IMG/VR virus record: IMGVR_UViG_3300002925_000022
Location: 90,081-129,319 of that record
Origin: a virus
Length of the DNA stretch: 39,239 nt
Strand: one strand, 5' to 3'
Shown here: piece by piece, positions 30,732 through 35,672 of the stretch
Position numbering within the stretch: position 1 is the first letter of the stretch
Layout: every line of letters starts with the position of its first letter
The notes under the pieces: generated by a model
Databases searched by the model: none
Told to the model about the DNA's origin: nothing
Seen by the model: only the letters and a program-made list of their open reading frames with translations
Program-made: the position numbers and the translations under genes

Positions 30732-31817
30732 TTACTCGCTAGCCTTCGTTTCAACAACCTGAATGGAAGAGGGAAAGGTTTTTAGACCAAATTGGTCTTT
30801 CTTGAATTTGCCGACGATGATGTCATTCTTTTCATACACCAAATCGGTCTCCTCGTTGAAAGACCAAACCTTGCATGGCCGTTTTGTTCCCGACTCGCCA
30901 TGAAAAGTCACTCGAAGAAATTGCTTGCCGGTTGAACTGGTATCCACCGTGCATTTGTCAATGATAGCCCAGTAAAACCTGCCCTCGTCCGCAAAAGAAT
31001 CAATGGACTCAACCTTGTTGCGGGCAAAATAGTCCATTATCTTGGGTGTTACCACCAAGGACATATCAATCTGACCAGTCAGTTCCTTTGAGTGAACAAT
31101 CTTCTCGTCCGTGGTCCAATCCTCGGGTTCAGTTGCCACTACATTCTTGACAATTGCCTCCAATTCGGCAACCACATCATTGTTCTTTTTTCGTGCGGAA
31201 ATTTTCTTCAGTTTATCGTAGTTGTCAATGAAAACTGTATACATCTGCTTGTAGTTCGCAAAGGTCTTCCCTGGACCTACCAGTCCCATGCTTTCAAAGG
31301 CTTCTGCCTTGATCAGATTTGCAAACGTTCGTTTGTTGAACTTGCTGTGCCTCCAGGATCCGTCTGGATTGACAATAAGATCCCTTGGCTGAGTGTATGG
31401 CCTGTACCTCTTGATCTCGTACAGAGCCGCCTTCCCCACCCCCTTAATCGCCGAGAAAGAGGGGATCAAGACACGTTCTGAATTCATGGAGAAGTTATCT
31501 TCCGAGTGGTTGATGTCTGGCTTCCCCACCTTGTAGCCAAGAGAACGAGCCTCCATCAAAGCCACAGACTTCGGATCCTCACCAGAAGCACTCTTGCCCT
31601 TCCCGACCGTAGCAAAGTCCAAATAGGAAGCAATCCACTCATCTGGATAATAAGTCTGGAACCATGCACACTGATAGGACGTGATGGCATAAGCCATGGC
31701 GTGGCTATTAGAGGTAAGTGCTCCATTTGCTAGATAAAATTGGTGATCTGGATGATCCACCTCTAGATCATAGGCTTGATGCTTCCCGACCGGCTTAAAA
31801 GATACGATTTTAACCAT
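30732..31817 (-). CDS. dnaE: DNA polymerase III alpha, fragment 3 (split intein C-part 2 + C-terminal HhH/OB region)
   Basis: MVKIVSFKPVGKHQAYDLEVDHPDHQFYLANGALTSN (IntC, 31817-31707), then SHAMAYAITSYQCAWFQTYYP, PDINHS and SAIKGVG. Confidence 0.93.
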   Translation of the reverse strand: MVKIVSFKPVGKHQAYDLEVDHPDHQFYLANGALTSNSHAMAYAITSYQCAWFQTYYPDEWIASYLDFATVGKGKSASGEDPKSVALMEARSLGYKVGKPDINHSEDNFSMNSERVLIPSFSAIKGVGKAALYEIKRYRPYTQPRDLIVNPDGSWRHSKFNKRTFANLIKAEAFESMGLVGPGKTFANYKQMYTVFIDNYDKLKKISARKKNNDVVAELEAIVKNVVATEPEDWTTDEKIVHSKELTGQIDMSLVVTPKIMDYFARNKVESIDSFADEGRFYWAIIDKCTVDTSSTGKQFLRVTFHGESGTKRPCKVWSFNEETDLVYEKNDIIVGKFKKDQFGLKTFPSSIQVVETKASE

Positions 31818-31921
31818 TACTCAATAACCTCATCGTCGCTTTGAAAGCTGGTATTCCGTATCCTGATGATACATCCAGCCCCATTTGAACAAAACAAGAA
31901 TTAGGCGCTCGAAGATGCGCC

Positions 31922-33701: not shown

Positions 33702-33729
33702 ATCCTAACCCTAGCATGAAGGCTGTCAA
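33702..33729 (-). promoter_or_regulatory. sigma70-like promoter TTGACA-N16-TAGGAT for dnaE fragment 2
   Basis: The -35 overlaps the TGA stop of fragment 1; purine-rich RBS AAGGAAGAG before ATG 33652. Confidence 0.45.
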
Positions 33730-35672
33730 TCCTCCTTTGGCCACTCGCGCAACGCAATGTTAAGGGCGAGGTTTTTTTTACACTGTTCAACTGTGAGTTC
33801 CTCAAACCCCAACTGGCGCAGTAGTTCTTCACGCGCTGCACACCTCTTCTCGGCCTCTTCCGCTATTGCCTGTGCAACGTCCTTTACATCATCTTCTTCT
33901 GTTAGTTCCTGTGCCGGAACCCATCCACGATTCGTGGTTAAGAACTTGTGGTCCTTGGTACAACGGATAACCTTACCGTCATCAAACACCAGTTCAATTA
34001 CATCCTCGTTGCAATCGTAGGTCAGAGTGTTCTCTACATTCTGCACGTTGCCATACGCATCTATCACTTTATCTCCAATTTGTACGGATTCAATCGGAAC
34101 CATCATTCCGTTAGCCATCTTCACTCTGGTCCCTGGAAGGAAACAACCACGGGCATTTCCGATAAGCATTTGCTTACTGCAAACCCGCATTATATGATAA
34201 TAGGTCAAAAAATACTTGGCAAACTTCAGTCCCTTGATGACCTCAAGTTCATACTTCAAACGGTCAATGTAGGTTTGCTTCGTATGGAGTCTGCGGAACT
34301 TTAACCCTTCAATTGCTAGTTTCTTGATCTCCTTGAAGGCCACCATGTCTTCGTCATTTGCCTCAGACTCGGGAAGTTGGGCTCGAAGCTTCTCAATTTC
34401 CTCCTGGGCAATGATCTTCTCAATTGACGGAAGCTTCACCCGGCGATCTGGTTGGATATTGCTCGCAATCTGCTGGTGTGCAATATCGTGAGTACGTTCA
34501 ATAGCTTCCATGATGACTTGATCGTCATAGAACCCATACTCATGGCAGTAATTCTTGTAACTGGCCCAAACCTGTTCAGCATTTTTGGGGTACAGTTCAC
34601 ACTTCAGTTCTTCAACTTTCTCTGGAAGAGGCTTCCGTCCTTCTTCTGGCTTCAAGAACTGCAGCATGCCCATCATCTTGTAGATTTCTCGTTCCCGCCA
34701 GTGAGAAGGATCTGAATAGTGAGCGTCACACGTCACCACCAGTGGACAGCCAGTACGCTTTGAAGCCTCAATGAGATGCTGGTTCACAAGGTGCTGAGCC
34801 CCCAACCTGTTGAACTGGATCTCCAGGTAGTAGTTCTCCTTGCCAAGAACTTCCTGGAATTCTGCAATCGCCAAGGCAAGCTCGGCTTGGATCTCTTCTA
34901 GGTTGTCATCGTTCGGAACCCACAGGTTGTGATCCGGTTCCTTCTGATGATCAAATACAATCTTTGCCGGATAACCCGCAATGCAAGCCGACAAAGCAAT
35001 AATGTTACCGTTGGAATGCTTCTTTAGCATGTCCAAGTCCACTCTAGGATAACGGTAAAACCCGTCAGCCGCAGAATCCGAAACAATTCGAAACAAAGAC
35101 TTCAGTCCAGCATCATTCTTTGCCAAAAGAACAAGATGGTTCCGTTGATACAACGGATTCCGAAACTTTGCCCTCGTCCCCTTGCTCTCTTCCTCGTTCT
35201 CTACAATCGTACCGCCAGAATCATCCTCTAAGGCCGCTTCCTCAGCCTTGATCTCCGAAATCTCCTGTAGTTCCTCCTCTGTCTTGGCCAATTCATTGCC
35301 AATCGCTTCCAAAGACCCAGGAGTAGACTCTTTCCCCTTGTTATTAGCCACAGCGGTTCCAGACCCCCGCTGGGCCTCGTAAAGTTCCCTCCACTTCGAA
35401 AGGGATGGAACAAAATAGGCTTCCACCCCGTAGATGGCTTTGAAATTAATACCGTCTTTCCTTAGTTTCTCAGCATACAAATGCTGATGTGAAAAACCGT
35501 TCATGTTGCCATGGTCCGTTAAAGCCAAAGCATCCATCCCGTTTTTCCGCGCAAAATCAATATGGTCCTGTGGCCGTCCAATAGCATCAAACGTGCTGTA
35601 GGTGCTGTGCGAATGTAGCCCCACAAACCTCCTTGGGCTATTGTTCCCCCCTTTATTGCTGCCGTCATTCAT
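33726..35672 (-). CDS. dnaE: DNA polymerase III alpha, fragment 1 (PHP domain + IntN-1)
   Basis: LHSHSTYS, ALTDHGN, GVEAY, HLVLLAKN, LSACIAG, DAHY, YIDRLKYELEVI...YFL...GNARG, then intein CFLPGTRV...CTKDHKF (34145-33729). Confidence 0.95.
   Translation of the reverse strand: MNDGSNKGGNNSPRRFVGLHSHSTYSTFDAIGRPQDHIDFARKNGMDALALTDHGNMNGFSHQHLYAEKLRKDGINFKAIYGVEAYFVPSLSKWRELYEAQRGSGTAVANNKGKESTPGSLEAIGNELAKTEEELQEISEIKAEEAALEDDSGGTIVENEEESKGTRAKFRNPLYQRNHLVLLAKNDAGLKSLFRIVSDSAADGFYRYPRVDLDMLKKHSNGNIIALSACIAGYPAKIVFDHQKEPDHNLWVPNDDNLEEIQAELALAIAEFQEVLGKENYYLEIQFNRLGAQHLVNQHLIEASKRTGCPLVVTCDAHYSDPSHWREREIYKMMGMLQFLKPEEGRKPLPEKVEELKCELYPKNAEQVWASYKNYCHEYGFYDDQVIMEAIERTHDIAHQQIASNIQPDRRVKLPSIEKIIAQEEIEKLRAQLPESEANDEDMVAFKEIKKLAIEGLKFRRLHTKQTYIDRLKYELEVIKGLKFAKYFLTYYHIMRVCSKQMLIGNARGCFLPGTRVKMANGMMVPIESVQIGDKVIDAYGNVQNVENTLTYDCNEDVIELVFDDGKVIRCTKDHKFLTTNRGWVPAQELTEEDDVKDVAQAIAEEAEKRCAAREELLRQLGFEELTVEQCKKNLALNIALREWPKED

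Follow-up and report, generated by a model that had tools for sequence, protein, structure and literature searches.

A phage dnaE gene divided into three genes by two different split inteins

The 39,239-nucleotide (nt) stretch of viral DNA analysed here, referred to as the window, forms the 3' portion of an IMG/VR virus record of 129 kb (G000:C1:90081-129319), for which CheckV gives a completeness of 32%. It contains a dnaE gene (PHROG 405, DNA polymerase) that is present as three genes interrupted by the halves of two split inteins. The polymerase is very probably made from three polypeptides, which are joined by two independent protein trans-splicing reactions. A preliminary description of this DNA had read the locus as three genes with two different split inteins and obligatory double trans-splicing, a reading that the sequence itself, comparison with relatives and the signs of selection all support.

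The gene consists of three consecutive open reading frames (ORFs), all on the minus strand, at 33726..35672 (ORF1, 648 amino acids (aa) counted from the ATG), 31922..33652 (ORF2, 576 aa) and 30732..31817 (ORF3, 361 aa). The frames of their start coordinates are 2, 1 and 2, so that neighbours are out of frame with each other. The 73 nt between ORF1 and ORF2 (gap 1) contain stop codons in all three frames, the 104 nt between ORF2 and ORF3 (gap 2) contain stops in both gene frames, and two stops in the frame of ORF3 are found immediately 5' of its ATG. Coordinates and frames thus confirm the earlier claim of three separate ORFs that are out of frame, have their own starts and are separated by 73 and 104 bp. 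The termini quoted earlier (GNARG/CFLPGTRV/TKDHKF, VHN/SAGGSLL, AYGFNK/SLLSSTLV/TMDHKF and TSN/SHAMAY) were all found in the sequence, and the lengths given for the four intein halves (139, 36, 116 and 37 aa) are correct. Intein 1 lies at GNARG/SAGG (site b) and intein 2 at FNK/SH (site d); their N-terminal and C-terminal halves are referred to as IntN and IntC. The features of the locus are as follows, in the order of transcription, with related IMG/VR contigs given as L numbers and related proteins as P numbers.

34146..35672, minus strand: N-extein of gene 1, DnaE residues 1-509 (PHP and start of the palm), ending in ...LIGNARG; Pfam PHP 2.4e-34, DNA_pol3_alpha 2-65; 72% identity to residues 14-511 of L004.
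33876..34145, minus strand: core of IntN-1, 90 aa, with Cys1 in CFLPGTRV (block A) and TKDH (block B); Hint-family Pfam and NCBIfam matches below the curated cut-offs.
33729..33875, minus strand: C-terminal tail of IntN-1, 49 aa, unique to the window; relatives end at ...DDVKEV.
33653..33725, minus strand: gap 1, 73 nt, with an AAGGAAG Shine-Dalgarno-like motif ahead of the gene 2 ATG that is common to L003.
33545..33652, minus strand: IntC-1, 36 aa, ending in VHN and followed by Ser+1; kept in L003, P0009, P0027, P0028, P0035, P0037 and P0040; ratio of nonsynonymous to synonymous substitution rates (dN/dS) 0.10 against L003.
32273..33544, minus strand: middle extein of gene 2, 424 aa, SAGGSLL...AYGFNK, palm and fingers; DNA_pol3_alpha 53-260 and DNA_pol3_finger; 82% identity to residues 512-935 of L004.
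31925..32272, minus strand: IntN-2, 116 aa, with Ser1 in SLLSSTLV and TMDH in block B; homologue of the Npu/Ssp DnaE IntN (PDB 7qil, E 9.7e-12; 4kl5, E 4.5e-11).
31818..31921, minus strand: gap 2, 104 nt, from the gene 2 stop to the gene 3 ATG; L014, L015 and L017 carry a gene for a 255-319-aa endonuclease at this place.
31813..31950, minus strand: remnant of a gene for a free-standing site-d homing endonuclease, decayed and frameshifted, corresponding to its last 47 codons; it overlaps the end of ORF2, gap 2 and the beginning of ORF3.
31707..31817, minus strand: IntC-2, 37 aa, ending in TSN and followed by Ser+1; TIGR01443 16.1 bits (cut-off 15.6); 81-84% identity to L014, L015 and L017.
30735..31706, minus strand: C-extein of gene 3, 324 aa, SHAMAY..., HhH and C-terminal OB-like region; HHH_6 2.4e-12; 69% identity to residues 936-1256 of L004.

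Once the inteins are removed, the three exteins (509, 424 and 324 aa) give a polymerase of 1257 aa (~140 kDa). They tile the NCBIfam model PRK05673 free of gaps, at positions 4-365 (ORF1), 366-752 (ORF2) and 752-1059 (ORF3), and the Pfam domains PHP, DNA_pol3_alpha, DNA_pol3_finger and HHH_6 follow one another across the three ORFs in the order of DnaE. The catalytic Asp motifs FPDIDSDF and KFDVLGL are found in the gene 2 extein. A scan of IMG/VR with ORF2 as the query returned five related contigs, two of which, L004 and L006, carry uninterrupted dnaE alleles (~1256 aa). Comparison with L004 places both breaks at single-residue precision, GNARG(511)/SAGGS(512) and GFNK(935)/SHAMAY; the equivalent points in E. 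coli, from alignments to PDB structures, are G363/S364 and K758/S759. Nucleotide comparison shows that each cassette interrupts the intact allele cleanly at one point; the first adds ~600 nt (window 33545-34144) and the second 564 nt (window 31710-32273). The restored junctions GNARG-SAGG and GFNK-SHAM match the uninterrupted alleles of L004 and L006 exactly, in agreement with the earlier claim that removal of the inteins restores the motifs xRGS-xGSL and FNKSH in a polymerase of ~1260 aa.

Both inteins have the features expected of class-1 inteins, namely a nucleophile in block A, a TxxH motif, a terminal Asn followed by Ser+1, and an IntN and an IntC encoded in different ORFs, each of which has its own stop and start. 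The splicing residues of intein 1 (Cys510 of gene 1 as Cys1, TKDH, HN and Ser+1) and of intein 2 (Ser461 of gene 2 as Ser1, TMDH, SN and Ser+1) are kept in relatives, including those whose exteins are only 40-60% identical. Compared with their counterparts in the nearest relatives of the window, the intein halves differ at proportions of 0.06-0.16 for nonsynonymous sites (pN) and 0.39-0.88 for synonymous sites (pS). Their dN/dS is 0.05-0.17 where dS is unsaturated, which is similar to that of the exteins and indicates purifying selection.

Intein 1 is only weakly like diverse phage inteins. The core of IntN-1 is 79% identical to the IntN of L003, with a dN/dS of 0.045, and is kept in L010, L012 and L013. 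A tblastn search with IntN-1 against 50,697 phage records gave only distantly related inteins from other hosts and, in the DnaE of Lactococcus phage 949, an intein at site b that is contiguous. The 49-aa tail probably arose by read-through on loss of the endonuclease gene.

Intein 2 resembles the cyanobacterial DnaE split intein in both halves. IntN-2 matches the structures 7qil, 4kl5 and 2keq at E 1e-11 to 1e-10 and is 87% identical to that of L017 (dN/dS 0.11). Residues 1-37 of IntC-2 align with residues 1-36 of the Npu IntC chain 4lx3_B (E 1.2e-3), the internal cut point is the same as in Npu, and IntC-2 starts with its own Met. A tblastn search of the phage records with IntN-2 gave no match at 1e-3. 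The cyanobacterial DnaE intein junction, AEY/CFN (Y/CFNKSH), served as the reference for the site. Judged by these alignments, intein 2 is a relative of the cyanobacterial intein and not an allele of it, because it is inserted at FNK/SH, four residues downstream of Y/CFNKSH. Cys1 and Cys+1, which would mark a cyanobacterial allele, are replaced by Ser1 and Ser+1. Cysteine-less split inteins have been described as a rare subclass (PMC12707363). The Ssp and Npu DnaE split inteins (Wu et al., 1998; Caspi et al., 2003, as cited in PMC2677866), for which the structures 4kl5, 2keq, 4lx3 and 7qil are available, share with intein 2 an IntC of 36-37 aa starting with M-[IV]-K-I, Ser as the penultimate residue and the same DnaE motif. 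They differ in that the cyanobacterial halves are located at unlinked chromosomal loci, whereas the halves of intein 2 lie 104 nt apart in a phage, and in that the dnaE of the window has a second split intein in the same gene.

Association of the halves of intein 2 was also modelled. When IntN-1 and IntN-2 were offered together to IntC-2 in a three-chain model, the score was 0.87 against 0.11 for the best of 3 controls. Every confident contact of IntC-2 was on IntN-2, at least 88% of contacts were common to the runs, and the pLDDT (predicted local distance difference test) of the partner was at least 74. The mark set for such models is reached by 51 of 78 solved complexes and by 2 of 108 mismatched pairs. 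Because complexes of Npu DnaE have already been solved, the pass of intein 2 may come from the model's memory of those structures and speaks for likeness rather than for binding. The control in which IntC-2 was offered IntN-1 plus an unrelated chain reached 0.11, which lends no support and is not counted in favour of orthogonality.

The proposed assembly would proceed as follows. Gene 1 would give extein 1 (509 aa) fused to IntN-1, gene 2 would give IntC-1, extein 2 (424 aa) and IntN-2 in one chain, and gene 3 would give IntC-2 fused to extein 3 (324 aa). Each IntN would pair with its own IntC and fold as a HINT domain. Splicing would then take the class-1 route: Cys1 of intein 1 or Ser1 of intein 2 would undergo an acyl shift, transesterification to Ser+1 and cyclisation of the terminal Asn would come next, and a final acyl shift would restore a peptide bond. 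This would yield a scarless polymerase of the length and mass given above, carrying the two restored junctions. That splicing occurs, and that it is efficient, is inferred.

Several points weigh against this proposal. The locus is known from one metagenome assembly and from sequence alone, and IntN-1 carries the unusual 49-aa tail. The GAGG before the gene 3 start is 11 nt upstream, and in relatives this start overlaps the endonuclease stop, which suggests a former translational coupling that is now lost. Intein 2 has two Ser nucleophiles and lacks a penultimate His (Npu likewise has Ser there). Inteins with Ser at both positions are often slower. The basis for orthogonality is the ~30% identity between the two inteins together with an evolutionary argument.

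An unlikely alternative is that the intein halves serve as a non-covalent clasp, docking the three chains so that the polymerase works without formation of peptide bonds. The dnaE of L010 has a break after a 73-aa IntC-d piece without any intein, so some relatives tolerate unspliced breaks. Against a clasp, all splicing residues (Cys1 or Ser1, TxxH, terminal Asn and Ser+1) are present and are kept under purifying selection. Furthermore, the breaks cut the motifs xRG/Sxxgs and FNK/SH, which need a continuous backbone in uninterrupted alleles, and unspliced pieces should be inactive because both breaks cut conserved palm or finger motifs.

Even with covalent joining, the two inteins might be partly cross-reactive. 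Reaction of IntC-1 with IntN-2 would cyclise the core and reaction of IntN-1 with IntC-2 would skip it, and such side products could brake or regulate replication. Both IntN halves are acidic (net charges -8 and -9) and alike in block B and its surroundings (CTKDHKF and CTMDHKF); however, the IntN halves are only 30% identical and the IntC halves 32%, and IntC-2 is not basic (-1) in comparison with IntC-1 (+3). Unrelated split inteins are as a rule mutually orthogonal in vivo (15 of 16; PMC7090010), and the persistence of the combination of sites b and d in lineages whose exteins are as little as 40% identical speaks against a side reaction of high cost. Cross-reaction of this kind is therefore quite improbable, somewhat more so than the clasp, and inteins 1 and 2 are expected to act separately. 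Orthogonality is a sound expectation because the order IntC-extein-IntN in ORF2 would lead to cyclisation on cross-reaction; it is not remarkable, because the inteins are only ~30% identical and orthogonality is the rule among unrelated split inteins. A regulatory role for double trans-splicing is pure speculation, and two selfish homing cassettes whose endonuclease genes have since been lost are a more economical explanation.

Least probable of all, and very improbable, is that assembly or sequencing errors have broken contiguous mini-inteins or that the locus is a decaying pseudogene: the window does come from a single metagenome assembly, but no frame is open through gap 1, stop codons close the frame of ORF3 immediately ahead of its ATG, the sequence of gap 2 is derived from an endonuclease and not from an intein, each IntC, like that of Npu, has a Met of its own at the canonical split point, the same layout is found in independent samples and assemblers, and dN/dS is well below 1 in exteins and inteins alike.

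The origin of the breaks can be followed in the relatives of the three-gene dnaE. At site b (L003 and L012) and at site d (L014, L015/L016, L017 and L010), an ORF of 255-344 aa lies between IntN and IntC. The site-b ORFs have endonuclease matches of TnsA/Endo-I/DUF7487 type and the site-d ORFs form one family. At the position of gap 1, L003 has a 310-aa TnsA/Endo-I-like endonuclease ORF that with its flanks takes up 1113 nt, against 202 nt in the window. No endonuclease remnant was detected in gap 1 or in the IntN-1 tail, neither of which has significant likeness to the site-b endonuclease (profile E >= 0.1), and gap 1 shares with L003 only the Shine-Dalgarno region before IntC-1. The remnant at site d was found by tblastn of the whole window with the endonucleases of L017, L014 and L015 (43-45% identity, E 7e-6 to 3e-5); it corresponds to positions 267-314 of the 314 positions of the endonuclease profile (E 1e-6) and lies in the third frame. 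A 55-aa ORF with a TTG start (window 31810-31977, minus strand) is this remnant in its old frame and is very unlikely to be a gene. Gap 2 is best regarded as the leftover of a ~900-nt deletion, because the endonuclease remnant is located there and because the ATG of the IntC-2 gene overlaps the stop of the remnant, as it overlaps the endonuclease stop in relatives. Each intein would thus have arrived as a fractured-gene cassette of IntN, free-standing homing endonuclease and IntC, and later deletion of both endonuclease genes would have left a fixed three-gene dnaE.

Fractured genes in phage-like metagenomic DNA were described by Dassa, London, Stoddard, Schueler-Furman and Pietrokovski in 2009, with three DnaE loci among them (PMC2677866). 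The locus DnaE-1 of that study also holds the C-part of an additional intein (PMC2677866). The gene in the window is likewise a conserved enzyme of DNA metabolism, here a replication enzyme, broken by a split intein that is itself cut where endonucleases are inserted, with its pieces on one strand of phage-like DNA (an IMG/VR virus record), and its relatives have Vsr/PD-(D/E)XK-like endonucleases. It differs from the fractured genes of Dassa et al. in having two complete split inteins, three genes and no endonuclease gene left. A free-standing homing endonuclease gene between the halves, which belongs to the strict definition of a fractured gene, is absent from the window and present in L003, L012, L014, L015 and L017. 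The locus therefore falls outside the strict definition, yet its sequence clearly points to descent from a fractured gene. The full three-piece gene, the empty alleles and the four-piece relatives are not described in Dassa et al. (2009).

Both gaps were also searched for signals of expression. RNA folds of gaps 1 and 2 were unremarkable (z -1.5 and -0.8), and the promoter and terminator scans were at chance level (7 vs 6.3 and 9 vs 5.3). A promoter-like site, TTGACA-N16-TAGGAT (window 33702-33729, minus strand), overlaps the gene 1 stop, and a 6-bp GC hairpin with a T-rich tail is located 3' of the gene 2 stop (31903-31922); both are within the regional chance expectation. Directly 3' of dnaE, a 388-aa protein (window 29525-30691, minus strand) belongs to phrog_2475 and has no Pfam match. 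ORFs of 378-405 aa with N-termini like that of this protein come after dnaE in L004, L005, L006 and L015.

The layout is widespread in environmental phages and barely described in the literature. When ORF2 was searched against 5.8 billion proteins, dozens of "middle pieces" of 495-577 aa were found that begin with an IntC and, after GFNK, end with an IntN. Sites b and d are combined in P0009, P0027, P0028, P0035, P0037, P0040 and P0058; other middle pieces combine site d with site c (RKKR/SFPDID) or site c' (PDID/SDF, inside the conserved PDIDSDF). Contigs confirm at least three adjacent dnaE pieces in L010/L011 (two samples), L013, L014 and L015/L016. The three-piece layout with sites b and d occurs in independent assemblies that are 40-58% identical, namely L010/L011, L013 and the middle pieces with b and d. 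The check for homologous three-gene loci that had been proposed with the preliminary description was thus successful. The novelty claimed there for the architecture was overstated, as layouts with b and d and other layouts with two or three inteins recur in many independent metagenomic contigs, and a hint of them is found in Dassa et al. (2009). In relatives, site-b inteins begin with C, and those at site d begin with S, C or T. Further break points, mapped on the intact allele from 120 matches, are near residues 217-224, 254, 286, 660 and 843-852. Beyond PMC2677866, the searchable literature yielded no account of a gene that naturally has two split inteins (subscription journals were outside its coverage). 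Megablast of the locus against the 50,697 phage records gave no match. Matches to Rhodococcus (Grayson), Klebsiella and Rossellomorea phages have a dnaE that is whole or divided.

Relatives of the window show other arrangements. In the close relative L015 (1685-10590; also in L016), dnaE is in four pieces with three split inteins, at sites a, c' and d, each with an endonuclease ORF of 304-319 aa; the last piece in L015/L016 has a ~980-nt insertion near ...SYQC, which is probably a contiguous intein. The L015/L016 layout is represented by the middle piece P0004, found in 24 contigs. L005 (3455-8127) has a split intein at PDID/SDF inside the palm motif and another at ALTA/CIAGY in the PHP region. 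At least five distinct intein insertion sites are found within one phage clade. In L010 (8635-9753), the IntC-d gene has only 36 extein residues before a stop, and the HhH part is a separate 262-aa ORF; there are no intein halves at this break, and it may be a non-spliced one. Outside the window, the same genome has a UDP-glucose/GDP-mannose dehydrogenase gene with a contiguous intein containing a LAGLIDADG endonuclease domain (L008:913-3351; G000:C1 ~40840-43278). The phage holds at least three inteins, since this one adds to the two in dnaE.

The family of IntN-2 comprises 84 cluster representatives at E<=1e-10. Among the 154 members with a recognisable junction, 149 are at FN[KRA]/[S/C/T], and 124 of these 149 end the protein and are therefore split. 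The first residue of the 149 site-d inteins is Ser in 78, Cys in 51 and Thr in 20 (the family includes P0004, P0006, P0015, P0058 and P0081). Thr1 is unusual as the N-terminal nucleophile of an intein. Three representatives (P0206, P0239 and P0253) have the junction FAEY/CL, and two of the three pass the equivalog cut-off for cyanobacterial DnaE-N. FastTree and a quick IQ-TREE run both place the cyanobacterial inteins as one small clade nested in the site-d family, on a long branch and with no strongly supported branch forcing the placement. It is possible, though doubtful, that the cyanobacterial split DnaE intein is a derived offshoot of the phage FNK site-d family that moved four residues upstream. 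A phage origin is a lead only, and no direction of transfer is claimed. Liu and Yang (2003, J Biol Chem 278:26315; listed as a reference in PMC2874743) are said to have reported that the split dnaE of Trichodesmium erythraeum has multiple inteins; a single one of them is split, giving two genes, and the rest are contiguous. This is likewise a natural dnaE with several inteins, and P0206 is of that type. It differs in having one split intein, whereas both are split in the window and two trans reactions are needed.

Tandem trans-splicing with orthogonal split inteins has been engineered (PMC7090010; PMC12707363). The engineered systems likewise use three segments, two different split inteins and a middle segment of the form IntC-X-IntN. 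They are laboratory designs, whereas the pair in the window is natural and has evolved together in one essential gene. Intein pairs that coexist in one polypeptide are pre-tested candidates for orthogonal ligation tools, and intein 2 is of the Npu-like split kind and has Ser as both nucleophiles. Natural tandem trans-splicing would be a recurrent state of phage dnaE rather than a curiosity of a single contig, of which the searchable literature has given a one-line hint in 2009. The clade provides a natural series for the origin and fixation of split genes, with uninterrupted alleles, split genes with an endonuclease and split genes after endonuclease loss. Because intein 2 is like the cyanobacterial DnaE intein, the origin of that system becomes open to testing. 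If the phage origin were true, the textbook split dnaE of cyanobacteria would go back to a fractured gene of a phage, and this phage clade would preserve the empty allele, the endonuclease-bearing split and the fixed split without endonuclease side by side.

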